DNA of 64,000 bases, taken from Escherichia coli (GTDB lineage Bacteria; Pseudomonadota; Gammaproteobacteria; Enterobacterales; Enterobacteriaceae). Numbering within the stretch: position 1 is the stretch's first letter; each line of letters opens with the position of its first letter. This document shows positions 7,378-54,950 of this stretch, piece by piece. Below the pieces are notes generated by a model, which was not told where the DNA came from, did not search any database, and saw only the letters and a program-made list of their open reading frames with translations. A program made the translations under genes and the position numbers. The stretch lies in assembly GCF_050920415.1 (NCBI RefSeq), contig NZ_CP169309.1; one strand, given 5' to 3'.

Positions 7378-8370
7378 TTACAGCAGAGAAGGGACGCTCT
7401 CGCGAACAGCTGCCGGCCATACACCACACTGAACCTGGCCGATATGTGGCAGTTGCAGCAGCAGCATGGTCAAACGAGACTGCCCGATACCGCCGCCGAT
7501 GGTCTGCGGCATTTCACCGCGCAGCAGCGCCTGATGCCACTCCAGCTGCAGACGATCTTCATCACCGGTCAGCGCCAGCTGATGTTTCAACGTATCGGCA
7601 TCCACGCGGATCCCCATGGAAGAAAGCTCAAACGCATCTTCCAGTACCGGGTTCCATACCAGAATATCGCCGTTCAGACCCGCATGGCCCAGCTCTGACG
7701 GGGTGCTCCAGTCATCATAATCCGGTGCGCGCACGTCGTGACGATGACCATCACTCAACTTGCCGCCAATCCCGACGAGGAATACAGCGCCAAGATCTTT
7801 CGCAATCGCCCGCTCACGTCCTTTGGCATCGAGATCCGGATAACGAGCCAGTAACTCCTGGCTGTGTACGAAGTGGATCTGATCCGGCAGGAACGGTGCC
7901 AGGCCAAACTCTTCGCTAACTGCAGCTTCGGTTGCTTTAATTCCCGCCCAGATCGCCTCTACCGTGCTTTTCAGAGTCGAGAATTGACGCTCGCCGTCGC
8001 CCATTACGCGCTCCCAGTCCCACTGGTCTACATAGATCGAGTGCAGCGGGGAAAGACGGTCTTCATCGGGGCGAAGGGCTTTCATGTGCGTGTATAGCCC
8101 TTCGCCCGCGCTGAAGTCATGTTGCCCTAAGGTCTGACGTTTCCACTTCGCCAGTGAATGAACCACTTCGAACTGGGCATCAGGCAGAGCTTTCACTTTT
8201 ACCTGCACCGCTTTTTCACAGCCCGACAAGTTATCCTGCGTGCCATCCCCCACACGGCTAAGAATCGGCGCCTGGACTTCGATCAGCCCCAGACGTTCTT
8301 CCAGTTGACGAGAAAAGTGAGATTTCACGAAGCTAATTTGACGTTGTTTGGCAATGTAAGCGGTTTTCAT
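7378..8370 (-). CDS. asnA: Aspartate-ammonia ligase (asparagine synthetase A)
   Basis: 330 aa [53 protein letters not shown]; divergent from asnC. Confidence 0.95.
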
Positions 8371-8521
8371 TTTTTATACTCCTGCGTCCTGTTGCTTATG
8401 ATTAAGCAACAAAAACCGACACACATGCAATAATCATTCAATAAAAAGCCTCACACACTTTTGATTCATTAAAAAAGAAGGCTAAAATAGAGTGATTCTT
8501 CAATCTGCATAAGAAAATCCT

Positions 8522-8980
8522 ATGGAAAATTATCTGATCGACAATCTGGACCGCGGCATCCTGGAAGCATTAATGGGTAATGCGCGTACCGCTTACGCCG
8601 AACTGGCGAAACAATTTGGCGTCAGTCCGGGGACGATTCACGTTCGTGTAGAGAAAATGAAGCAGGCGGGGATCATTACCGGGGCACGTATTGATGTCAG
8701 CCCGAAGCAGCTCGGTTATGACGTAGGCTGCTTTATCGGCATTATATTAAAGAGCGCCAAAGACTATCCTTCCGCGCTGGCAAAGCTGGAAAGCCTCGAT
8801 GAAGTCACTGAAGCCTATTACACAACTGGCCACTACAGCATCTTTATCAAAGTGATGTGCCGTTCGATCGATGCTCTCCAGCATGTACTTATCAACAAGA
8901 TCCAAACAATTGATGAAATTCAGTCCACTGAGACACTGATCGTCCTGCAGAACCCGATCATGCGTACCATTAAGCCATGA
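8522..8980 (+). CDS. asnC: Lrp/AsnC-family transcriptional regulator AsnC
   Basis: 152 aa ORF with N-terminal HTH; divergently arranged with asnA. Confidence 0.95.
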   Translation: MENYLIDNLDRGILEALMGNARTAYAELAKQFGVSPGTIHVRVEKMKQAGIITGARIDVSPKQLGYDVGCFIGIILKSAKDYPSALAKLESLDEVTEAYYTTGHYSIFIKVMCRSIDALQHVLINKIQTIDEIQSTETLIVLQNPIMRTIKP

Positions 8981-9069
8981 TCGGCTTTTTTAATCCCATA
9001 CTTTTCCACAGGTAGATCCCAACGCGTTCACAGCGTACAATACGCCACTCTTAATAAAGGTGGCGGTTT

Positions 9070-9513
9070 ATGGCAGATATCACTCTTATCAGCGGCAGCA
9101 CCCTCGGCGGTGCCGAATATGTAGCAGAACACTTGGCTGAAAAGCTGGAAGAGGCGGGTTTTACCACCGAAACGCTGCACGGTCCGCTGTTGGAAGATTT
9201 ATCTGCCTCGGGGATCTGGCTGGTTATCAGCTCAACCCACGGTGCCGGAGATATTCCGGACAACCTTTCTCCTTTCTATGAAGCATTGCAGGAACAGAAG
9301 CCCGATCTTTCTGCGGTCCGCTTTGGCGCTATCGGTATTGGCAGTCGTGAATATGACACCTTTTGTGGGGCTATCGATAAACTCGAGGCAGAACTCAAAA
9401 ATTCCGGTGCAAAACAGACAGGCGAAACACTGAAGATCAACATCCTTGATCACGACATTCCGGAAGATCCGGCAGAAGAATGGCTGGGATCGTGGATTAA
9501 TTTACTCAAATAA
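9070..9513 (+). CDS. mioC: Flavodoxin-like FMN protein MioC
   Basis: 147 aa ORF MADITLISGSTLGGAEYVAEHLAEKLEE; transcribed toward oriC. Confidence 0.9.
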   Translation: MADITLISGSTLGGAEYVAEHLAEKLEEAGFTTETLHGPLLEDLSASGIWLVISSTHGAGDIPDNLSPFYEALQEQKPDLSAVRFGAIGIGSREYDTFCGAIDKLEAELKNSGAKQTGETLKINILDHDIPEDPAEEWLGSWINLLK

Positions 9514-9535
9514 GTATACAGATCGTGCGATCTGT

Positions 9536-9781
9536 TGTGGATAACTCTGTCAGGAAGCTTGGATCAACCGGTAGTTATCCAAAGAACAACGGTTGTTCAG
9601 TTTTTGAGTTGTGTATAACCCCTCATTCTGATCCCAGCTTATACGGTCCAGGATCACCGATCATTCACAGTTAATGATCCTTTCCAGGTTGTTGATCTTA
9701 AACGCCGGATCTTTGTTATCCACAGGGAAGTGCGATCCTAATAAGAGATCACAATAGAACAAATCTCTAAATAAATAGATC
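9536..9781. other. oriC: Chromosomal replication origin oriC (about 246 bp)
   Basis: DnaA box TGTGGATAA at 9536..9544 (R4) and TTATCCACA at 9716..9724 (R1); three AT-rich 13-mers seen as reverse complements (…GATC ACAATAGAACAAATCTCTAAATAAATAGATC); dense GATC sites; located between mioC and mnmG. Confidence 0.92.
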
Positions 9782-9891
9782 TTCTTTTTAATACCCAGGA
9801 TCCCAGGTCTTTCTCAAGCCGACAAAGTTGAGTAGAATCCACGGCCCGGGCTTCAATCCATTTTCATACCGCGTTATGCGAGGCAATCACC

Positions 9892-11781
9892 ATGTTTTAT
9901 CCGGATCCTTTTGACGTCATCATCATTGGCGGGGGTCATGCAGGCACCGAGGCCGCGATGGCCGCGGCGCGTATGGGTCAACAGACTCTGCTTTTGACAC
10001 ACAATATCGACACTCTGGGGCAGATGAGCTGCAACCCGGCGATCGGCGGTATTGGGAAGGGACATCTGGTAAAAGAAGTGGATGCACTCGGCGGCCTGAT
10101 GGCTAAAGCGATCGATCAGGCGGGTATCCAGTTTAGGATACTAAACGCAAGCAAGGGACCGGCAGTTCGCGCTACCCGAGCTCAGGCGGATCGTGTGCTC
10201 TACCGTCAGGCGGTACGTACGGCGCTGGAGAACCAACCGAACCTGATGATCTTCCAGCAGGCGGTTGAAGATCTTATTGTCGAAAACGATCGCGTGGTCG
10301 GTGCTGTTACCCAAATGGGACTGAAGTTCCGTGCCAAAGCCGTCGTGCTCACCGTTGGGACGTTCCTCGACGGTAAAATTCATATCGGTCTGGATAACTA
10401 CAGCGGTGGCCGTGCTGGTGATCCGCCGTCCATTCCGCTTTCTCGCCGTTTGCGTGAACTGCCGCTGCGCGTTGGTCGTCTGAAAACCGGGACACCGCCG
10501 CGTATTGATGCTCGAACCATCGACTTTAGCGTGCTGGCGCAACAGCATGGCGATAACCCAATGCCGGTATTCTCGTTTATGGGCAATGCGTCCCAGCATC
10601 CACAGCAGGTGCCGTGTTATATCACCCATACCAACGAGAAAACCCATGACGTGATCCGCAGTAACCTCGATCGTAGCCCAATGTACGCAGGGGTGATCGA
10701 AGGTGTCGGCCCACGCTACTGCCCGTCGATCGAAGACAAAGTCATGCGCTTCGCCGACAGAAATCAGCATCAGATCTTCCTTGAACCGGAAGGGCTGACC
10801 TCTAACGAAATTTATCCGAACGGTATCTCCACCAGCCTGCCGTTCGATGTGCAGATGCAAATCGTCCGCTCCATGCAGGGGATGGAAAACGCGAAGATCG
10901 TGCGTCCGGGTTATGCCATTGAGTATGACTTCTTCGATCCACGCGACCTGAAACCGACGCTGGAGAGCAAGTTTATCCAGGGGCTGTTCTTTGCTGGTCA
11001 GATTAACGGCACTACCGGTTACGAAGAAGCCGCTGCGCAAGGTTTGCTGGCCGGTCTTAACGCTGCCCGTCTGTCTGCTGACAAAGAAGGTTGGGCTCCG
11101 GCGCGTTCTCAGGCGTATCTCGGCGTACTGGTTGATGACCTGTGCACTTTAGGAACCAAAGAACCGTATCGTATGTTTACCTCGCGTGCAGAATATCGCC
11201 TGATGCTGCGCGAAGATAATGCAGATCTGCGTTTGACTGAAATCGGTCGTGAACTGGGCCTGGTGGATGACGAACGTTGGGCGCGCTTTAACGAGAAGCT
11301 TGAGAACATCGAGCGTGAGCGTCAGCGTCTGAAATCGACATGGGTAACCCCGTCGGCGGAAGCTGCAGCCGAAGTGAATGCTCACCTGACTGCGCCGCTT
11401 TCCCGTGAAGCCAGTGGTGAAGATCTGCTGCGTCGTCCGGAAATGACTTATGAAAAATTAACCATGCTGGCGCCTTTTGCCCCTGCGTTGACAGACGAAC
11501 AGGCGGCGGAACAGGTTGAGATTCAGGTTAAATACGAAGGTTATATTGCGCGCCAACAAGATGAGATCGAAAAGCAGCAGCGTAACGAGAATACCTTGCT
11601 GCCAGCGACGCTGGATTACCGCCAGGTATCCGGTCTTTCTAACGAAGTGATCGCCAAACTTAACGATCACAAACCGGCTTCTATCGGTCAGGCTTCGCGT
11701 ATTTCTGGCGTCACGCCTGCTGCCATCTCCATTCTACTGGTGTGGCTAAAAAAACAGGGTATGCTGCGTCGTAGCGCATAA
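9892..11781 (+). CDS. mnmG: tRNA uridine 5-carboxymethylaminomethyl modification enzyme MnmG (GidA)
   Basis: 629 aa ORF, FAD-binding N-terminus [13 protein letters not shown]; first gene after oriC. Confidence 0.95.
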
Positions 11782-11844
11782 CGCATTAAAAATGCCTGGT
11801 AAGCACCCGCTTACCGGGCTACGCATCAAGAACAGGTAATCACC

Positions 11845-12468
11845 GTGCTCAACAAACTCTCCTCTCTGCTGAAAGACGCAGGAATTTCGCTTACCGATCA
11901 CCAGAAAAACCAGCTAATTGCCTACGTGAATATGCTGCATAAATGGAATAAAGCGTACAACCTGACTTCGGTCCGCGATCCTAATGAGATGCTGGTACGC
12001 CATATTCTCGATAGCATTGTGGTGGCACCGTATCTGCAAGGTGATCGGTTTATCGATGTCGGCACCGGACCAGGACTGCCTGGCATTCCACTCTCTATCG
12101 TGCGTCCTGAAGCCCATTTCACGTTGTTGGATAGCCTTGGTAAACGCGTGCGTTTCCTTCGTCAGGTGCAACATGAGCTTAAACTGGAGAATATTGAGCC
12201 AGTACAGAGCAGGGTAGAAGAGTTTCCTTCTGAGCCGCCATTTGATGGCGTAATTAGCCGCGCCTTTGCCTCTTTGAACGATATGGTGAGCTGGTGCCAC
12301 CATCTTCCTGGTGAGCAAGGTCGTTTCTACGCGCTGAAAGGCCAAATACCGGAAGATGAAATCGCTTTGTTGCCCGAAGAATATCAGGTCGAATCAGTGG
12401 TTAAACTTCACGTTCCGGCCCTGGATGGCGAACGTCATCTGGTGGTGATTAAAGCAAATAAAATTTAA
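11845..12468 (+). CDS. rsmG: 16S rRNA m7G527 methyltransferase RsmG (GidB)
   Basis: 207 aa ORF with SAM-binding motif [10 protein letters not shown]. Confidence 0.95.
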
Positions 12469-19993: not shown

Positions 19994-20023
19994 AGCCAGT
20001 CTGGAAACAGACTGGCTTTTTTA
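19994..20023 (+). terminator. Rho-independent terminator of the atp operon
   Basis: Stem AGCCAGTCTG / CAGACTGGCT with GAAA loop followed by a T-tract. Confidence 0.8.
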
Positions 20024-20168
20024 TATGTATTTTGCTGATTGATACAAAAATTATATTATTCATCAAAAAGTTAGCGTCTTGTTAAGTCGTTAATTGTCAC
20101 CTTTTCTCCATAGTGATATCGTCCCTGTTGTTATTATTATTTCTATAATTATATGAGGGATCATATCT

Positions 20169-20867
20169 ATGTCTTTTAAAACGTCTTTTGAAGGTGTCCA
20201 ACCGGTTGTGATGACCGATCGCGCCACCTTTATCCGCCGTGCTTATATGCATCTGGCTGGGGCAGTTGTCGGGTTCATCATTCTCAGCGCGCTGTTTATC
20301 TTTAGTGGGCTTGGCAAAATGATGCTTAGGGTGCTGATGAACAGTGGTCAGTTTGGTTGGCTGGTGGTGCTGGGTGCTTTTATTCTGGTCAGCATGCTGG
20401 CGACTCGTCTGGCAGATAATGTGGAGTCTAATCAGACCCAACTGATTGGACTGGGGATATACGTACTGGCAGAAGCGTTAATTTTTGCACCTTTACTGAC
20501 ACTGGCAGCGTATATTAATCCAGCAATTATTGGCGCGGCGGGCATCACCACAGCACTGCTTGTGGGGGGTCTGACATTCACTGCCTTCACGACCAAAAAA
20601 GATTTCTCTTTCATGCGTTCGTTTTTAACCATGGCGGGCTTTATCGCTTTCGGTGCCATTATCGCGAGCATTTTTATGGGATTCTCACTGGGCGTCTGGT
20701 TCTCGGCGGCAATGGTGCTGTTGTGTGCTGGCTTCGTGCTGTACGACACGTCTAATATTATTCATCATTATCCTACCGATCGTCCGGCAGGCGCGGCGCT
20801 ACATCTCTTCGCCTCTATCGCTACCATGTTCTGGTATGTTCTGCGCATTTTCATGTCCCGCGATTAA
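20169..20867 (+). CDS. BI-1/YccA-family (Bax inhibitor-1-like) inner membrane protein
   Basis: 232 aa with about 7 predicted TM helices and a charged C-terminal tail; preceded by a very AT-rich promoter region; located between atpC and glmU, which I recall as adjacent in K-12. Confidence 0.6.
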   Translation: MSFKTSFEGVQPVVMTDRATFIRRAYMHLAGAVVGFIILSALFIFSGLGKMMLRVLMNSGQFGWLVVLGAFILVSMLATRLADNVESNQTQLIGLGIYVLAEALIFAPLLTLAAYINPAIIGAAGITTALLVGGLTFTAFTTKKDFSFMRSFLTMAGFIAFGAIIASIFMGFSLGVWFSAAMVLLCAGFVLYDTSNIIHHYPTDRPAGAALHLFASIATMFWYVLRIFMSRD

Positions 20868-20880
20868 CCCTGCTTGTATA

Positions 20881-20907
20881 AACCAGCGAAATTATTCGCT
20901 GGTTTTC
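20881..20907 (+). terminator. Rho-independent terminator after the BI-1-family gene
   Basis: ACCAGCGAA-ATT-ATTCGCTGGT hairpin followed by TTTTCCCGTTTATTT. Confidence 0.7.
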
Positions 20908-21142
20908 CCGTTTATTTATTGATCGAAATAAGAGCAAAAACATCCACCTGACGCTTAAATGAAGGTACTGCCTTAATTTTCTGCAGACAAAAGGCGTGAC
21001 GATGGTCGAAAATGGCACTTTCGTCAGCGGGGATAATCCGTTATTGAACAATTTATCCTCTGTCCATTTCACGATGAAAAAAATGTAGTTTTTTCAAGGT
21101 GAAGCGGTTTAAATTCGTTCTCAAATTACAGTCAGGACGCGT

Positions 21143-24504: not shown

Positions 24505-24809
24505 TTTTCATCATTGATATAAAAGGGCTGCCGACGGGCGGCCTTTTTTATAAAGTGTATCAACGATTTATTATTGATGTACAAATTAATATAAATATAT
24601 TCTGAATTATTGGTGATGTCCTATTACGCACTTGATTTTTTACTGTTTTAATAATATTTATATAATAAATTTATATTTAATTTCGCATAATTAATATTAT
24701 TTTTAGATAAAAATACCCCTTTGGTGTACTATGCCTTTGAATCATAAAATCACTTATTAATTTAAGTTATGATTTAGACTGAAGGATATATTATATCAAT
24801 GGAGTTTGT

Positions 24810-25382
24810 ATGAAACGTAATATTATTGGCGGTGCAATTACGCTGGCATCTTTAATGTTAGCCGGAAATGCACTTGCAGAAGATGGCGTTGTTCACTTTG
24901 TCGGTGAAATTGTCGATAGCACATGCGAAGTGACTTCCGATACCGCCGATCAAACAGTACCTCTTGGTAAGGTCAGTAAAAGTGCGTTTTCAGGAGTAGG
25001 CAGCCTGGCGTCACCACAGCAATTTAGTATTAAACTGGAAAATTGCCCAGCAACCTATACTCAGGCAGCCGTCCGTTTCGATGGTACTGAAGCACCTGGC
25101 GGAGACGGTGACCTGAAAGTGGGTACACCGCTGACATCGGGTACACCTGGCGATTTTACCGGTACAGGGCAAGCGATTGCGGCAACCGGCGTCGGTATTC
25201 GTATTTTTAACCGGGCGGATAATTCTCAGGTTAAACTTTATAACGACTCTGCTTATAGCACAATCGACGCTGACGGTAAGGCTGAAATGAAGTTTATTGC
25301 ACGCTATGTTGCTACCAATACGACCGTAACGGCGGGTACAGCAAACGCGGATTCACAATTCACCGTCGAATATAAGAAATAA
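24810..25382 (+). CDS. lpfA: Fimbrial major subunit (long polar fimbria-like)
   Basis: 190 aa with signal peptide and conserved Cys pair; first gene of a chaperone-usher cluster between glmS and pstS, the position I recall for the lpf2-type operon in O157-like strains. Symbol assigned by position, not by sequence search. Confidence 0.55.
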   Translation: MKRNIIGGAITLASLMLAGNALAEDGVVHFVGEIVDSTCEVTSDTADQTVPLGKVSKSAFSGVGSLASPQQFSIKLENCPATYTQAAVRFDGTEAPGGDGDLKVGTPLTSGTPGDFTGTGQAIAATGVGIRIFNRADNSQVKLYNDSAYSTIDADGKAEMKFIARYVATNTTVTAGTANADSQFTVEYKK

Positions 25383-25429
25383 TTAATACAGGGCCTTTTT
25401 ATTCAGTTGGCTTTGGCCAGGGAGTCGTT

Positions 25430-26161
25430 ATGTCCAGAAAAAGTTGTTTAATCAGGCTCTTTAAAACAACAATTTCGTGTAATTTATTGAGGATTATTAT
25501 TCTAAGCATCTTTTTCCTCCAGCCGACATTGACCTGTGCAGGTGTTGTCATTGGCGGTACACGGGTTGTTTATTTGAGTAATAATGCTGATAAATCTATT
25601 TCTGTATTTAGTAAGGAAGAAAAAATTCCTTATCTCATCCAGGCATGGGTGGATCCGTTTAATAAAGATGATAAAACTAAAGCGCCATTTATTGTTATTC
25701 CTCCGGTATCACGGTTAGAACCCGCGCAAGAAAAAATATTACGTATTGTCCATACTAAAGGTTTGTCATTACCAGAGGATCGAGAGTCTGTCTTCTGGCT
25801 AAATATCAAAAATATTCCACCCTCTGCGAGCAGCAAAGAAGCGAACTCGCTGGAAATCGCCGTTAAAACGCGAATTAAGCTGTTCTGGAGACCGGCATCT
25901 ATCCGCATGATTCCCGAAGATGCCGCACCAAAGGTGAAGTGGCATCGGGAAGGCCGAAATCTTATTGCTGAGAACCCTAACCCGATTCATATCAGCGTGA
26001 TGGATGTCATTGTTGATGGCCATGATGTACCTCTTAACATGATCCGCCCTTTCGAGACGCTCACGTTACCGTTGCCTGCTAATTCTTCGGGTAGCCAAAT
26101 GACCTGGCGATTTATTAATGATTACGGCGCGATAAGCGAACCATTAAAGCAAGCGTTGTAA
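25430..26161 (+). CDS. lpfB: Periplasmic fimbrial chaperone (PapD-like)
   Basis: 243 aa with signal peptide; second gene of the cluster. Confidence 0.6.
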   Translation: MSRKSCLIRLFKTTISCNLLRIIILSIFFLQPTLTCAGVVIGGTRVVYLSNNADKSISVFSKEEKIPYLIQAWVDPFNKDDKTKAPFIVIPPVSRLEPAQEKILRIVHTKGLSLPEDRESVFWLNIKNIPPSASSKEANSLEIAVKTRIKLFWRPASIRMIPEDAAPKVKWHREGRNLIAENPNPIHISVMDVIVDGHDVPLNMIRPFETLTLPLPANSSGSQMTWRFINDYGAISEPLKQAL

Positions 26162-27893
26162 GCATTGCATAAGGATAGGCGAATTATGGTTACGACCAGA
26201 ATAGCGGTTGGTCTGACGGCAGGGACATGTCTCGTTTTCTCGCAAAGCCTGATGGCCGAGGTCAGCGTATTTAATCCGGCGCTGCTGGAAATAGACCATC
26301 AATCCGGAGTCGATATTCGCCAGTTTAACAAAGCGAATCACATACCTCCCGGCGCCTACAGTGTTGATATTTTTATCAATGGCAAAATGTTCGAGCGTCA
26401 GGATGTCACTTTTGTTCAGGATAACCCTGATGCCGATCTGCACGCCTGCTTTGTCGCGATTAAAAAAAAGCTGACTTCCTTTGGTGTAAAAGTTGACGCG
26501 CTGAAATCGCTCAATAAGGTGGATGACAATGCCTGTATTGACCCTGCACCACGCATTGAAGGCTCAACCTGGCAACTGGACGGCGATAAGCTGCAACTGA
26601 ATATCACCATTCCCCAGATCTATATGGATGCGATGGCTTACGATTACATAAGCCCCACGCGTTGGGATGAGGGAATTAACGCACTGACTATCAACTACGA
26701 TTTTTCCGGTTCACATACTCTGCGCTCGGATTACAACTCACAGGAGACCGATACCAGTTATCTCAACCTGCGTAACGGACTCAATATTGGGCCGTGGCGA
26801 CTCCGCAATTACAGCACCTTGAACACCACCGATGGTCGTGCGGAATACAACTCTATCAGTACCTGGATACAACGTGATATTGCTGCGTTAAGAAGCCAGA
26901 TTATGATTGGCGATACGTGGACGGCGAGCGATATTTTCGACAGCACGCAAATCCGTGGTGCACGACTTTATACTGATAAAGATATGTTACCCGCCAGCCA
27001 GAATGGCTTTGCGCCTGTGGTTCGTGGGATTGCAAAATCCAACGCCACCGTCATCATTCGACAGAACGGCTACGTAATTTATCAGTCAGCCGTGCCACAA
27101 GGTGCCTTTGAAATCACCGACCTCAATACTGCCAGCTCAGGCGGCGACCTGGACGTGACTATCAAGGAAGAAGATGGTAGTGAACAACGATTCACCCAGC
27201 CTTATGCGTCGCTGGCAATCCTCAAACGTGAAGGTCAGACCGATGTAGATGTTAGCGTGGGGGAGCTGCGCGATGAAGATGGTTTTACTCCTGACGTGCT
27301 TCAGGCACAGATCCTTCATGGCTTGCCCCACGGTTTTACCTTGTATGGTGGCGTACAGGCTGCTGAAAAGTATGGTTCTGTTGCTTTGGGGGTAGGTAAA
27401 GATCTCGGTTCTCTGGGAGCCATCTCTTTAGATGCGACACATGCCAGAGCGAAATTTGCAGATGATGATACGGAAACGGGTCAGTCATATCGTTTTCTGT
27501 ATTCAAAACGTTTTGACGATACAGACACCAGCTTACGCCTGGTTGGCTATCGTTACTCCACCGAAGGCTACTATACCCTCAATGAATGGGCATCCCGGCA
27601 AAATAGTCCAGAAGATTTCTGGCAAACCGGAAACCGTCGCAGCCGTGTGGAAGGAACGTTAACGCAATCGCTGGGCAGAGATTATGGCAACTTATACCTG
27701 ACATTAAGCCGCCAGCAATATTGGCACACAGATGATGTCGAACGATTAATCCAATTTGGTTACAGCAGTAGCTGGAAGCGACTCTCGTGGAACGTCTCGT
27801 GGAGTTATTCCAATACGGCCCGGCAAGGGACGAGTAATAGTTATGCCAGTGATAACACCAGCGAACAAATCTACATGCTCTCTGGATTTGCCC

Positions 27894-28799
27894 CTATATT
27901 TCCAGACATCTGTTATCACTTAACCCATTACAAGCCCGCTGCCGCAGATATTCCCGTGGCGAGCGATAACCCAGCGCACTATGCGGATGCCATTCGTTAT
28001 AATGCTCGAACGCCTCTGCAAGGTTCTTTGCTGCCGTTAACCCGTCTGGTTTGGGCATGATACTGATGTAGTCACGCTTTATCGTTTTCACGAAGCTCTC
28101 TGCTATTCCGTTACTCTCCGGACTCCGCACCGCCGTGTTCTTCGGTTCAAGTCCCAACATCCGGGCGAACTGGCGTGTTTCATTAGCCCGGTAGCATGAA
28201 CCATTATCCGTCAGCCACTCCACTGGAGACGACGGAAGATCGTTGCCGAAGCGGCGTTCCACCGCTCCCAGCATGACGTCCTGTACTGTTTCACTGTTGA
28301 AGCCGCCAGTAGTCACCGCCCAGTGCAGTGCCTCACGATCACAGCAGTCCAGCGCGAACGTGACACGCAGTCTCTCTCCGTTATCACAGCAGAACTCGAA
28401 CCCGTCAGAGCACCATCGCTGATTGCTTTCTTTCACGGCCACTCTGCCTGTATGTGCCCGTTTCGATGGCGGTACAGCAGGTTTTCGCTCAAGCAACAGC
28501 GCATTCTGGCGCATGATCCGGTAAACACGTTTGGCATTGATTGCAGGCATACCATCAAGTTCTGCCTGTCTGCGAAGCAGCGCCCATACCCGACGATAAC
28601 CATACGTGGGCAGCTCTCCGATAACATGGTGTATACGGAGAAGCACATCCGTATCATCAGTGTGACGACTGCGGCGGCCATCCATCCAGTCATCGGTTCG
28701 TCTGAGAATGACGTGCAACTGCGCACGCGACACCCGGAGACAACGGCTGACTAAGCTTACTCCCCATCCCCGGGCAATAAGGGCGCGTGCGCTATCCAC
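27894..28799 (-). CDS. insD: IS2 transposase OrfB (InsD)
   Basis: 301 aa ORF inside IS2, DDE integrase-core fold. Confidence 0.9.
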
Positions 28800-29122
28800 T
28801 TTTTTGCCCGTCCATATTCAACGGCTTCTTTGAGGAGTTCATTTTCCATCGTTTTCTTGCCGAGCAGGCGCTGGAGTTCTTTAATCTGCTTCATGGCGGC
28901 AGCAAGTTCAGAGGCAGGAACAACCTGTTCTCCGGCGGCGACAGCAGTAAGACTTCCTTCCTGGTATTGCTTACGCCAGAGAAATAACTGGCTGGCTGCT
29001 ACACCATGTTGCCGGGCAACGAGGGAGACCGTCATCCCCGGTTCAAAGCTCTGCTGAACAATTGCGATCTTTTCCTGTGTGGTACGCCGTCTGCGTTTCT
29101 CCGGCCCTAAGACATCAATCAT
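28757..29122 (-). CDS. insC: IS2 transposase OrfA (InsC)
   Basis: 121 aa HTH protein starting [13 protein letters not shown]; overlaps insD in the -1 frame. Confidence 0.9.
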
Positions 29123-43375: not shown

Positions 43376-44041
43376 TTAACGCGCTATATCCCAGCCGCGA
43401 GCCTTCCAGAGCGCAGGCAGTTGCGCCAGCTCGGTAAAGGTGGTGACTTTCGGGTGAACGATCGGCTTATTGTGCGGGTCAGCGCAGAAGTAAAACACTT
43501 CCATACCGGCATCTATCCCTGACTGCGCACCGGCGCTGGAGTCATCGACCAGAATGCAGTTTTCAACGTTCACATTCATCGCTTTTGCCGCATGGAACAT
43601 TAATGCCGGATCGGGCTTCCAACGCTGGATATCGTAGCCGCTGAACAGTTTTTCCGGGAAGTAGTGCAGCATATTGAGCTTACCAAGCGAATGCTGCATT
43701 TTGCTCACCGGGCCATTAGAAACCACGCACATCGGCACGTTAACGCTCGCCAGCAATTCGTTCGCTCCCGCGATGACCTCTAGTTCGCTATCAAACAGGC
43801 GGGTGACTTCTGCGCGGTAAACGTGCTCTGCATCGGCCTGGACCATCGTCACGTCCTGCTCTTTACTGATGATATCGATGATTTCATAGAGTTTTACGCC
43901 TTTAAAACGGGTAAAAATCTCTTCCAGGTCTACGTTAATGCCAAATTCCCTGAACATCGTGACATAGGCGCGAGAGCAAATGACCTCGCTATCGACCAGC
44001 GTACCATCGCAGTCGAAAAATACCGCTTCTATCTGGGACAT
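43376..44041 (-). CDS. yieH: HAD-superfamily sugar phosphatase
   Basis: 221 aa, N-terminal DxD motif FFDCDGTLVDSE. Confidence 0.85.
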   Translation of the reverse strand: MSQIEAVFFDCDGTLVDSEVICSRAYVTMFREFGINVDLEEIFTRFKGVKLYEIIDIISKEQDVTMVQADAEHVYRAEVTRLFDSELEVIAGANELLASVNVPMCVVSNGPVSKMQHSLGKLNMLHYFPEKLFSGYDIQRWKPDPALMFHAAKAMNVNVENCILVDDSSAGAQSGIDAGMEVFYFCADPHNKPIVHPKVTTFTELAQLPALWKARGWDIAR

Positions 44042-49335: not shown

Positions 49336-50583
49336 TTAGCCAAATTTAGGTAACACATTAAAGACGTTACCGAACCAGCATAAAATTACGGTTATACCAA
49401 AGAGAATGACAATCGCCGGAATAAGATTGCCGCCCCAGACCGTGAACATCTGATTGGGAAATTTCTTGCGAGCTTTGATTGCCAGCACCGCGGGGATAAT
49501 GACTGCCCAGATGGTGGCGCATAGTCCGGCACCGCCGATCCCGTAAATAAAGCCGTTTGGGAAGACGAGATATAACAAAGCAGGTGGCAGGAAGGTTAAC
49601 AGCACGGTTTTGAAACGCCCGCCGTGGGAGTTATCAATCTTAAACAGATCCGCCAGATAATCGAACAACCCCAGTGTGACACCAAAGAACGAACTGGCGA
49701 CAGCTAAGTTAGAGAACACCAGCAGGCAAAACTCGATAATGCCGTGCTGTTTGGTGCCGAGGAACGATTTCACCAGCGAATCAACGTTGCCGCCTGAGGA
49801 GATAATCGCCTTAAAGCTTTCTCGCGGAATATTCCCCATCGTGCAATAGAGCCAGAAGAGATAAATCACCAGCGCCAGCAGCGAACCAAAAACCACACTT
49901 TTGATTAGCTTATCTTTGCGTTTGCCATAGCAAATAATCAGGCTGGGAATATTGCCGTGGAAACCAAATGACGCCAGACACACCGGCAAAGCCATAAAGA
50001 TATACGGGAAATAAGACGTTCCCGCAGTGGTGCTGGTGGCATCGCGCAGAATGGAGTAATCGACCTGGAAGAAGAAAGAACCAAACACGATCACAAAGGA
50101 GATAATCTTCAACCCGAGGAACAACGAGGTAATACGGCTGGCGGCTAACGAGCTTATCCACAATACGCTGGCAACGAAAATGGCTGTGCAGATCCCGACA
50201 ATACGTGGATTAGCGTGATAACCCAAATTCATTGATATCGTTTCACTAATGATCGCACCATTAGCAGAGATATAGGCATAAGTGAGGATATAGAGAACGA
50301 AGGCAACGGTAATACCGCTGATAATGTTCCAGGTGTTACCGATTAAATCTTTGGTGATGGTGTTAAAACTGGAGCCGACGGGATAATTTAAATTTGCTTC
50401 TAATAATAATAACCCGGAATGAAGCATTGAAAACCAGGCAATGATAAGGATAAAGGCACCCCAGAAAAACCAGGCACCGGCAAGATCAACAGGTAAAGCA
50501 AACATACCTCCACCGATTACTGTACCTGCTATAACCATAACACCCCAAAATGCAGAGTGCTTTTTTTCAGCTTGATCAGTCAT
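49336..50583 (-). CDS. tnaB: Low-affinity tryptophan permease
   Basis: 415 aa aromatic amino acid permease downstream of tnaA. Confidence 0.92.
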   Translation of the reverse strand: MTDQAEKKHSAFWGVMVIAGTVIGGGMFALPVDLAGAWFFWGAFILIIAWFSMLHSGLLLLEANLNYPVGSSFNTITKDLIGNTWNIISGITVAFVLYILTYAYISANGAIISETISMNLGYHANPRIVGICTAIFVASVLWISSLAASRITSLFLGLKIISFVIVFGSFFFQVDYSILRDATSTTAGTSYFPYIFMALPVCLASFGFHGNIPSLIICYGKRKDKLIKSVVFGSLLALVIYLFWLYCTMGNIPRESFKAIISSGGNVDSLVKSFLGTKQHGIIEFCLLVFSNLAVASSFFGVTLGLFDYLADLFKIDNSHGGRFKTVLLTFLPPALLYLVFPNGFIYGIGGAGLCATIWAVIIPAVLAIKARKKFPNQMFTVWGGNLIPAIVILFGITVILCWFGNVFNVLPKFG

Positions 50584-52476: not shown

Positions 52477-53648
52477 ATCGTTCGGAAAGCAATATTAAAT
52501 GCTTTTTTAAAGATTATAAATTACGTAAGAATTTTAATGTTTAAAAAAGGCTTGAGGAATAACAGGAATACTAACAATAAAGCGAAGCCGCGTCTGACAG
52601 TCAGAATGCGGCTTCGATACAGAAGCTGGAAAATCGAGCTAACTCGTTAATCTATCAGCGATACGTTGCCTTGAAAACATGGCTATGGGCACATTCAAGG
52701 ACACAAAAACCATTTTGTTCACAATGGCTGGTGGAACCACGGTTAAAACCATCACTCTATGAGGGCTTAGGGAAGTTCAGCTTTTATTGCAGATGTTCCC
52801 ATAATGGCAATAGCTTTTGTCAATGAATCGAGCCTCCTGAATAACTGAGCGGGCGATTTTATGCAGCGCGCATAGCTCCTTGATATGAGGCGATAAGCAT
52901 AGTTTTTGCGTACTGACTTGCGCTATAGTCCCCACGTTGCGGCAAAACCGCAACCGGAATTGGCGTTCCGAATTATCACGAGTGTCGGTAGCGATGTTTG
53001 CAGTGCTACTGGCGCGGCCTGCGCTCGCCCCTTCAATGGTGGCTCAGGCAGGGGCTTCGAAAGAAGCGCCGGGTCGTGATAACCGGTACGCCAACCCTGT
53101 CTGGGTCACCACCAGTGAGCCAGGCGTCTCCGGTGGTGGCGTTAACCTGCTTATCACGAAGCGGAGCGTTGCGTATGTGTCCTGTCCCTGAATTTCCCAT
53201 TGCACCAGCCTCCGCCGGAGGTATCTATGAAAATCACCGTAGAACAACCCTCAGCCAGAGAACTAGTCGATCGCTCGCGAGTCCTGGTGCATGTGATGCT
53301 CGAGCATCCTGACGATATCGGCCCGAATTATGCGTTGCTTCTCATCCTCGCCGACCAGCTACAACTATTAAGGGATGCTTTTGAAGAGGATGAGGTCAGA
53401 CGGCTTAGAGATGAGAAATTACCTCAGTAATTCTTACTGCGACCACAGCATCAGGGACAGATGTTGTGGTTGATTCCCCCACCTGCTTTTCCCTGGCTGG
53501 CTCCCCCATATTCTCTGAGGTGAATTCCATGAGCACAGCAATGGCGCGGGTTGAAAGGGCATCCCCCATCTTTCGCTGTTAAAGGTGAATAATGTGGGGG
53601 GAGTCGAGTACCTGTCAGTGTATCCCCCACATATTCCGGGTTCCACCA

Positions 53649-54950
53649 TCATTCCCCCGTATCCGGGAGCCGGATCTGTTCTCCATCGAGCACAATCAGT
53701 TGCTCGCGCAGCAGCTTCTCCAGCCAGCGCGAAAATTTCTTCTCGACGTTAATTCCCTTTGCGCGTAGATCGTCGCGCAAGAGCGCGCGGGTACAAGGCT
53801 TATTCTGGCTGATGCGTTGGTTAATACAGCGCCATAACGCCGTATGGTTGCGGGTGATATGAGGAACGTCGGGTGGTATGCCACTACTCAGTAAGTCATC
53901 GTCAGGTTGCCTAGGCTCGTCATTCAGCACCATTGAGGTCACTGGTTCGCCATCGCTATCGGTATAGATAACGACTTCCTCAAGATCGTAGGCGGTGACC
54001 TCCGGCATCTCCGCATCTTTCATCTTTGTACAACTCAGGGTGATAGCGTTGCGACGTCCCTCGCGCCTGACGTTAAACTCGGCATCCAGCGCAGCCTGAA
54101 AAGCACTTGAACCGCGTGCGCCCCGTTCCTGATCCTTACCCGAATGATGAACGATCATCATCGCTGCGCGCGTATGATACCGAATGGCGTCGCAACCCTA
54201 GATAAATGCGCCCATATCCCGCGCGGTGTTTTCATCTGAATTACCAAAACAGCGGGCCAGCGTATCGAGGATGATCAGCCGTACCGGCATTCCGGTCATG
54301 TTCTGAATGTCCTTTGCCGCCAGGATCACCTGCTCGATGCTTCCTGGAGCGGCTGGAAAGATCGGGCAGTCGACGCGAAACAGGTTATCGAGCGCCATCT
54401 CGTCATTAACGCTGAGTTCCCAGGCGCGGATCCGCCGCGATACACCGGTTCCTCCTTCTCCGGCGATAAACAGCACTGCTCCTTGATTGACTCGCCTTCC
54501 ACCCCATGACGTACCGCTTGCAATATGGCACGCCAGCGATACTGCCAGAAAGGATTTAAAACAGCCGCCGGGGCCGTAAATACTGCACAGCGTCCCGGCG
54601 GGAATAAGTCCTTTCACCAGATAATCCTGACTGGTGTTAAACCCTTCCGAGCCCCGGCGCAGCGGAAGGGTGGTGGTGAGAGTACGGTCTGATGCTGTCA
54701 TAGCTTACGACCTGAGATTTGCAGGAAGCTGCTGGTTGAACACAATCCGGGAAATGGATTCACCGTAGTGACGGTAAAATTCATCCCAGTCGCTCAATGT
54801 GGTGTCTGCAGGGAGAACCACACAGCCCTTCACTACCTCGGCAGCGGCGGTTGCATTCAGCAACCCGGTATTTTTCTCCTGACTGCAATCATTATCGCCA
54901 GCCAGGATAAGGTGGCATTCAGGCCACTGCGCCCGGAAAGCGATGGCCAC
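53649..54950 (-). pseudogene. P4 alpha-like primase/helicase remnant (Toprim + RecA-like/AAA_25 ATPase), 5-prime truncated and broken by in-frame stops
   Basis: Three same-frame ORFs: 54705..54950 (Toprim-like HLILAGDND), 54198..54701 (P-loop GPGGCFKS, Walker B LIILD) and 53649..54161 (HHSGK motif); they are separated by a TAA at 54705..54707 and a TAG at 54198..54200, and no N-terminal primase domain is present. Confidence 0.65.

Follow-up and report, generated by a model that had tools for sequence, protein, structure and literature searches.

The replication origin of a rare-lineage Escherichia coli: conserved architecture and an uncommon allele in the M 13-mer

Where does replication start on this chromosome, and how closely does its origin resemble that of K-12? 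The question is raised by positions 9536 to 9781 of the window, the whole 64,000-nucleotide stretch of Escherichia coli DNA analysed here (contig NZ_CP169309.1). The sequence-only reading had taken this locus for oriC and for expected core biology, and its coordinates proved exact in comparison with K-12, running from the L 13-mer to DnaA box R4. With a probability of about 95%, we regard the locus as the single chromosomal oriC of a rare E. coli lineage, with a K-12-like architecture and a probably tolerated allele in the M 13-mer. The oriC and dnaA control regions are well-known core biology. The rare M allele is a small natural experiment on much-studied regulatory DNA and a minor curiosity.

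The initiation mechanism in which these elements act is well established. ATP-DnaA binds R1, R2 and R4 and then fills two oppositely oriented low-affinity arrays, while IHF introduces a bend between R1 and R5M. The M and R 13-mers melt, DnaA holds the T-rich strand via TT[A/G]T(T) motifs, and DnaB loading follows. After firing, the GATC sites of oriC and the dnaA promoter are hemimethylated, and SeqA bound to them blocks re-initiation, and DnaA bound to the box in its own promoter autoregulates dnaA.

Elements of the origin

The locus lies on the minus strand. Alignment of its reverse complement showed that it is colinear with positions 3925744-3925989 of K-12 MG1655, with no indels and 241 of 246 bp identical. 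Window position 9781 equals K-12 3925744, where the L 13-mer and the annotated oriC begin, and position 9536 equals K-12 3925989, the final base of DnaA box R4, so that the locus measures 246 bp from one end to the other. The K-12 oriC (NC_000913.3, annotated at 3925744-3925975, with a 245-bp minimal origin extending to R4) thus has the same locus, length and spacing, and it differs from the present one by five substitutions inside oriC and two more just past R4. The elements, in the direction from the 13-mers to R4, are as follows.

Positions 9782 to 9793, minus strand: AT-cluster TATTAAAAAGAA, flanking the L 13-mer just outside minimal oriC, identical to K-12
Positions 9769 to 9781, minus strand: L 13-mer GATCTATTTATTT, identical to K-12 3925744-3925756
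Positions 9753 to 9765, minus strand: M 13-mer variant GATTTGTTCTATT (K-12: GATCTGTTCTATT), with C>T at 9762
Positions 9738 to 9750, minus strand: R 13-mer GATCTCTTATTAG, identical to K-12, including the TTATT ssDUE motif
Positions 9716 to 9724, plus strand: DnaA box R1, TTATCCACA on the plus strand, identical to K-12
Positions 9670 to 9715, minus strand: IHF interval from R1 to R5M, with 9712 G>A and 9703 T>G relative to K-12 and all three GATC sites kept
Positions 9628 to 9669, minus strand: left low-affinity DnaA array (R5M, tau2, I1, I2), 100% identical to K-12
Positions 9610 to 9618, minus strand: DnaA box R2, TTATACACA, identical to K-12
Positions 9584 to 9598, minus strand: Fis consensus match GAACAACCGTTGTTC (GnnYAnnnnnTRnnC)
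Positions 9545 to 9583, minus strand: right low-affinity DnaA array, 100% identical to K-12
Positions 9536 to 9544, minus strand: DnaA box R4, TTATCCACA, the right end of minimal oriC, identical to K-12
Positions 9512 to 9531, minus strand: Rob-binding sequence ATCGCACGATCTGTATACTT, just beyond R4, identical to K-12

Judged from the alignment, every element of the architecture is present and essentially identical to its K-12 counterpart. The three consensus DnaA boxes of an E. coli-type oriC (R1, R2 and R4) are there, as are both low-affinity arrays, R5M-tau2-I1-I2 and C3-C2-I3-C1. With 9-mer registers after Rozgaja et al. 2011, we take R5M to be TGTGAATGA at 9661-9669, tau2 GGTGATCCT at 9650-9658, I1 ACCGTATAA at 9639-9647 and I2 TGGGATCAG at 9628-9636, and the right array to consist of C3 and C2 over the old R3 TTTGGATAA, then I3 and C1 TCCTGACAG. 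As neither interval differs from K-12 at any base, the conclusion on the arrays is independent of the register.

The match at 9584-9598 is presumably the oriC Fis site, and the substitution 9591 A>C falls at the central, unconstrained position of this consensus match, GAACAACnGTTGTTC. The Fis consensus used is GnnYAnnnnnTRnnC (PMC10380432). The IHF site has been located between R1 and R5M (PMC10325909, PMC10380432), and a secondary IHF site, IBS2, has been proposed (PMC10380432). The putative IHF (R1-R5M) and Fis (R2-C3) intervals are both recognizable by sequence, with two and one substitutions, respectively.

The five substitutions relative to K-12 within oriC are 9762 C>T, 9728 G>T, 9712 G>A, 9703 T>G and 9591 A>C. 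The last four are not in a DnaA box or a 13-mer; 9728 G>T sits between the R 13-mer and R1. Adjacent to oriC, the change GT>AC at 9534-9535, just outside R4, lengthens a palindrome at the Rob site, whose sequence is given in PMC4285127. Over window positions 9518-9535 this palindrome now reads ACAGATCG-CA-CGATCTGT, and the same GT>AC change is common to the genomes of EC42405, 2013C-4282 and 2020CK-00188.

The duplex-unwinding side of the origin comprises three tandem AT-rich 13-mers with the consensus GATCTnTTnTTTT. All three are found, with the M 13-mer departing from the consensus at position 4 only and with unchanged spacing to R1. The AT-cluster next to them is described as a supplementary unwinding region (PMC10325909). 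Because of C>T at 9762, minimal oriC has 10 GATC sites, compared with 11 in K-12, the missing one being that of the M 13-mer. This is an allele-level deviation and no ground for excluding the segment from the oriC family. The sequence-only reading had called the DnaA boxes, the unwinding element and the GATC clusters intact: this holds for the DnaA boxes and for the L and R 13-mers, and it has to be amended for the M 13-mer and for the number of GATC sites. As that reading had anticipated, alignment to the reference revealed no substantial divergence of the DnaA boxes or 13-mers from consensus.

The M 13-mer allele

The DUE contains two kinds of single-strand ATP-DnaA sites, AGATCT and TT[A/G]T(T) (PMC12342881, PMC10325909, PMC4285127), and the substitution at 9762 touches both. 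The AGATCT 6-mer of the M 13-mer is lost, and the T-rich strand gains a TTGTT, which raises the number of TT[A/G]T matches in the L-M-R region from three to four. The computed nearest-neighbour duplex stability of the M region decreases by approximately 0.6 kcal/mol.

We searched complete E. coli genomes with a 45-mer centred on the changed base, for which megablast cannot seed unless that base matches. The variant 45-mer was found at 100% match in 3 of 5426 genomes (MFDS1022581, N96 and MB19), and the K-12 version matched 5407 of the 5426. The three assemblies are independent, from Korea, Tibet and Cuba. In an alignment of six oriC haplotypes, MB19 has the T within a haplotype that otherwise resembles K-12. 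The allele is thus present on two different oriC haplotypes, which points to recurrent mutation, most likely with at least two origins. Transfer of the allele to MB19 by recombination from the lineage of the window was considered and is unlikely, MB19 being K-12-like at a lineage-defining site 34 bp away and at three more.

Three further genomes of the same rare lineage, EC42405, 2013C-4282 and 2020CK-00188, share most of the oriC changes that distinguish the lineage from K-12. EC42405 has all four shared changes (9728, 9703, 9591 and 9534-9535), whereas 2013C-4282 has G instead of C at 9591, and 2020CK-00188 retains the K-12 T at 9703. Unlike the window, all three have the canonical GATC in the M 13-mer and a G at the equivalent of 9712. 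As these nearest haplotypes keep both bases, the two extra changes of the window are recent and derived.

We also scanned one genome per bacterial species with AGAGATNTGTTCTATTGTGATC, in which the base of interest is left free and the rest of the M 13-mer must match exactly. The base was C in 43 of 43 genomes of Enterobacteriaceae species from some 20 genera, these 43 being the only genomes matched in a scan that is not exhaustive. These 43 genomes show free variation between the R 13-mer and R1. Metagenome contigs yielded no match to a variant 34-mer and 20 to the canonical one, a small denominator that adds little. Taken together, the rarity in E. coli, the invariance across species and the metagenome counts are consistent with purifying selection on the GATC base of the M 13-mer. 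Such extreme conservation argues against strict neutrality.

What, then, might the allele do? Our analysis favours, as the most likely reading, that it is tolerated, being near-neutral or slightly deleterious, and a near-neutral or mildly deleterious effect fits its rarity. Redundancy of the GATC sites, together with the essential motifs on the R side, would buffer the loss in the M 13-mer. The closest experimental parallel is the work of Jha & Chattoraj 2016, in which ten oriC GATC sites were singly changed to GTTC and only the site overlapping R5 disturbed synchrony (PMC5145175). Single GATC>GTTC mutants of oriC otherwise kept growth rate and synchrony (PMC5145175). Changing a single GATC at tau1 or tau2 had no effect either (PMC5716108). 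In vitro evolution has shown that AT-enriching changes in DUE-M can even speed unwinding (PMC12342881). The engineered mutants resemble the natural allele in that one Dam/SeqA site of the DUE is lost while the rest of oriC is kept (PMC5145175). They differ from it in being laboratory GATC>GTTC changes in K-12, whereas the change here is a natural GATC>GATT that also makes a TTGTT.

The alternative that fares best is that the change in the M 13-mer is not neutral and measurably alters initiation control in this lineage. It could do so through shorter or leakier SeqA sequestration of the DUE, through the loss of AGATCT, or through unwinding that is easier and better held owing to the lower GC content and the new TTGTT. 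In favour of this alternative, the base is invariant not only in the 43 species genomes but also in more than 99.6% of E. coli genomes, and three described functional motifs are changed at once (motifs: PMC12342881, PMC10325909). Furthermore, the allele co-occurs with the second derived change, at 9712, which lies 4 nt from R1 and is absent in EC42405.

The data on the engineered mutants can be read on either side. Mutant #1 of that study, which we infer from the paper's text rather than from its figure to be changed at the M 13-mer site, grew normally and had an asynchrony index of 11.6%, compared with 4.3% for the wild type, and the authors considered it unaffected (PMC5145175). The index was mildly raised in mutants #1 and #2 (PMC5145175), and a small phenotype of the M allele is therefore possible. 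Nevertheless, according to the same authors, synchrony is robust to the loss of any single GATC site except the one overlapping R5 (PMC5145175). Moreover, carriers of the allele come from three unrelated sources, so such strains are viable in nature. We also looked for a compensatory change in the DnaA protein of the nearest genome and found only Q103H, T104A and A109V relative to K-12, all in the flexible domain II linker. The functional domains are devoid of compensatory changes, and the protein sequence gives no sign of compensation on the DnaA side. On balance we consider an altered initiation control unlikely, and we retain the reading of the allele as tolerated.

Somewhat less probable still is the more specific proposal that the GATC>GATT change, as a naturally recurring oriC variant, has a genuine phenotype. 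If it were so, the allele could alter when initiation occurs, how the origin is sequestered or how it unwinds at low temperature, and this would explain both the invariance of the base across Enterobacteriaceae and the occasional persistence of the change. A phenotype would also bear on the in vivo weight of the GATC site and AGATCT motif of the DUE relative to the TT[A/G]T(T) motifs.

A last explanation, that the origin is fully canonical and C>T at 9762 arose by error in sequencing or assembly, might be suggested by a one-base difference in an AT-rich stretch. However, MFDS1022581, N96 and MB19, three complete genomes sequenced independently, have this base as well as the window, and the difference is a substitution rather than an indel in homopolymer length. 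We rejected error as the source of the allele on the strength of these three genomes, and regard this explanation as very improbable.

An origin in its genomic setting

The identification of the locus as oriC rests on its colinearity with K-12, on its neighbours and on a switch in GC skew. The flanking genes are given below; the coordinates of mioC are from the RefSeq annotation of the near-identical record NZ_CP169399.1, with an offset of 1 base.

Positions 9070 to 9513, plus strand: mioC, pointing toward oriC
Positions 9892 to 11781, plus strand: mnmG (gidA), pointing away from oriC, with its ATG at 9892 and a putative promoter-like site at 9811-9838

The locus thus occupies the mioC-mnmG intergenic location of an E. 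coli-type oriC, between the mioC stop at 9513 and the mnmG start at 9892. GC skew is negative to the left of approximately 10 kb and positive to the right, and the minimum of the cumulative skew falls in the bin 8001-12000. This sign change at oriC is a signature, independent of the motifs, of an origin that is actually in use.

The motifs themselves cluster at the locus far beyond chance. The DnaA-box pattern TTATNCACA has seven matches in the 64 kb, compared with 2.7 expected from shuffles, and three of the seven fall in the 246 bp of oriC (Poisson P ~2e-7). The 10 GATC sites of these 246 bp amount to about eight times the density of the window, which averages 5 per kb (P ~7e-7). When the 64 kb are scanned in 250-bp frames, GATC sites are most crowded over oriC and its flank, with 11 in one frame, followed by the dnaA promoter with 10; the frame ranking after these has six.

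The second of these clusters lies at the other end of the window, where the sequence-only reading had correctly placed the dnaA promoter, some 54 kb from oriC. The corresponding distance in K-12 is approximately 42 kb.

Positions 63254 to 63394, minus strand: rpmH, divergent from dnaA, with a putative promoter-like site at 63525-63497
Positions 63650 to 63880, plus strand: dnaA regulatory region, intact, with 10 GATC sites (nine in K-12)
Positions 63783 to 63791, minus strand: consensus DnaA box TTATCCACA of the dnaA promoter, found by pattern match

Positions 63385-64000 align to the rpmH-dnaA intergenic region of K-12 with few substitutions. The last base of the window is position -1 of dnaA, directly before its GTG, and in the near-identical genome dnaA begins at position 1 of the record. 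The GATC sites start at 63652, 63662, 63673, 63750, 63775, 63818, 63842, 63855, 63868 and 63874, the last one extending to 63877. A DnaA box within a dense GATC cluster is what characterizes a SeqA-sequestered dnaA promoter. The K-12 region (3883730-3884335) has the same DnaA box and the same nine GATC sites at the same place upstream of dnaA. The box and GATC cluster in front of dnaA are therefore intact, as had been read from the sequence, with all nine K-12 sites and a tenth. The tenth differs from K-12 by AAG>TCA, 8 nt from the DnaA box. At window positions 63775-63779, the K-12 sequence GGAAAGTCC has become GGATCATCC, which forms the extra GATC. This site is common, being found in 1462 of 5426 genomes (27%), including O157:H7, ATCC 11775 and ATCC 8739. 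We had considered it as a counterpart of the GATC site lost from oriC and dropped the idea because the allele is so common.

A simple sigma-70 scan of the dnaA promoter region did not recover the p1 and p2 promoters, and an Rfam scan of the whole window gave, as expected, no match at oriC or at the dnaA promoter; the matches it gave are in the accessory islands. A solitary consensus DnaA box, TTATCCACA at 50154-50162 on the plus strand, is located in the region homologous to tnaB and is probably a chance occurrence.

The claim that oriC fixes the identity and orientation of the window is borne out by the colinearity with K-12, the mioC/mnmG and rpmH/dnaA neighbours and the GC skew. The locus anchors the species as E. 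coli, the orientation as the reverse complement of K-12 numbering, and the geometry of replication. To the right of 9.8 kb lies the counter-clockwise replichore (in K-12 numbering), mostly co-oriented with the fork, including the highly expressed atp and pst operons.

The notion that positions 9536-9781 are an oriC-like relic, with replication starting elsewhere, for instance from an integrated element, is hardly credible: there are horizontally acquired islands nearby, yet we found no support for it, the essential oriC elements are all intact, the GC skew flips sign at this very place, a single such locus is typical of E. coli (one oriC match per genome in 5424 of 5426 complete genomes), and in the nearby P4-like island the integrase is frameshifted and the RepA-family helicase gene is interrupted by an internal stop.

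Lineage and accessory segments

Shared core genes are 94-98% identical to those of K-12 (glmUS 95.1%, pst 95.9-96.4%, yieH-tnaA 94.3%), and at least 99% identity over 501 bp around oriC was found in only 5 of 5424 complete genomes. These values suggest a divergent, uncommon E. coli lineage. Four segments of the window are not shared with K-12.

Positions 20022 to 20902: 0.88-kb segment with a Bax inhibitor-1/YccA family gene, between atpC and glmU, in 6 of 5426 genomes
Positions 24505 to 31269: lpf-O113 fimbrial operon with IS2, between glmS and pstS, in 1,980 of 5426 genomes, mostly at 80-90% identity
Positions 35940 to 43386: segment of about 31% GC between phoU and yieH, with a homologous block in 1,109 of 5426 genomes, mostly at 80-95% identity
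Positions 52616 to 59538: 6.9-kb P4-like island directly after the mnmE stop codon, present at full length in 1 of 5426 genomes

The sequence-only reading had counted three accessory insertions within 45 kb of the origin. This was approximately right, except that there are four segments, the one at 20022-20902 having been missed, that 35940-43386 is a replacement, and that the last island reaches to about 49.8 kb from oriC.

The first segment, being found in only six genomes, marks the rare lineage; its Bax inhibitor-1/YccA gene between atpC and glmU is also found in at least EC42405 and 2013C-4282. The segment at 35940-43386 has genes for a pentapeptide-repeat protein and for two large proteins resembling type III effectors. 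It replaces bglGFBH-yieLK-cbrBC of K-12, so that it is no pure insertion. The P4-like island harbours a frameshifted tyrosine integrase gene, a retron St85 reverse transcriptase gene with its effector gene, a toprim gene and a RepA-family helicase pseudogene.

The Rfam matches in these accessory segments are listed here.

Positions 20902 to 21059, minus strand: STnc410 sRNA, adjoining the Bax inhibitor segment
Positions 53032 to 53116: C4 antisense RNA of the P4-like island, with its target at 52923-52974
Positions 55042 to 55172: EFASI RNA, in the P4-like island
Positions 57710 to 57834: STnc400, in the P4-like island
Positions 57837 to 57906, minus strand: retron msr RNA, in the P4-like island, with msr/msd RNA

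The nearest complete genome, that of E. coli MFDS1022581 (NZ_CP169399.1), ends in 64 kb almost identical to the window. The sole structural difference is the position of IS2. In the window, a 1331-bp copy at 27883-29213 interrupts the usher gene lpfC-O113, and in NZ_CP169399.1 lpfC is intact and IS2, at 1159-2488 of the segment compared, lies in a type III effector gene. This shift of IS2 indicates that the window comes from a sibling isolate or assembly.
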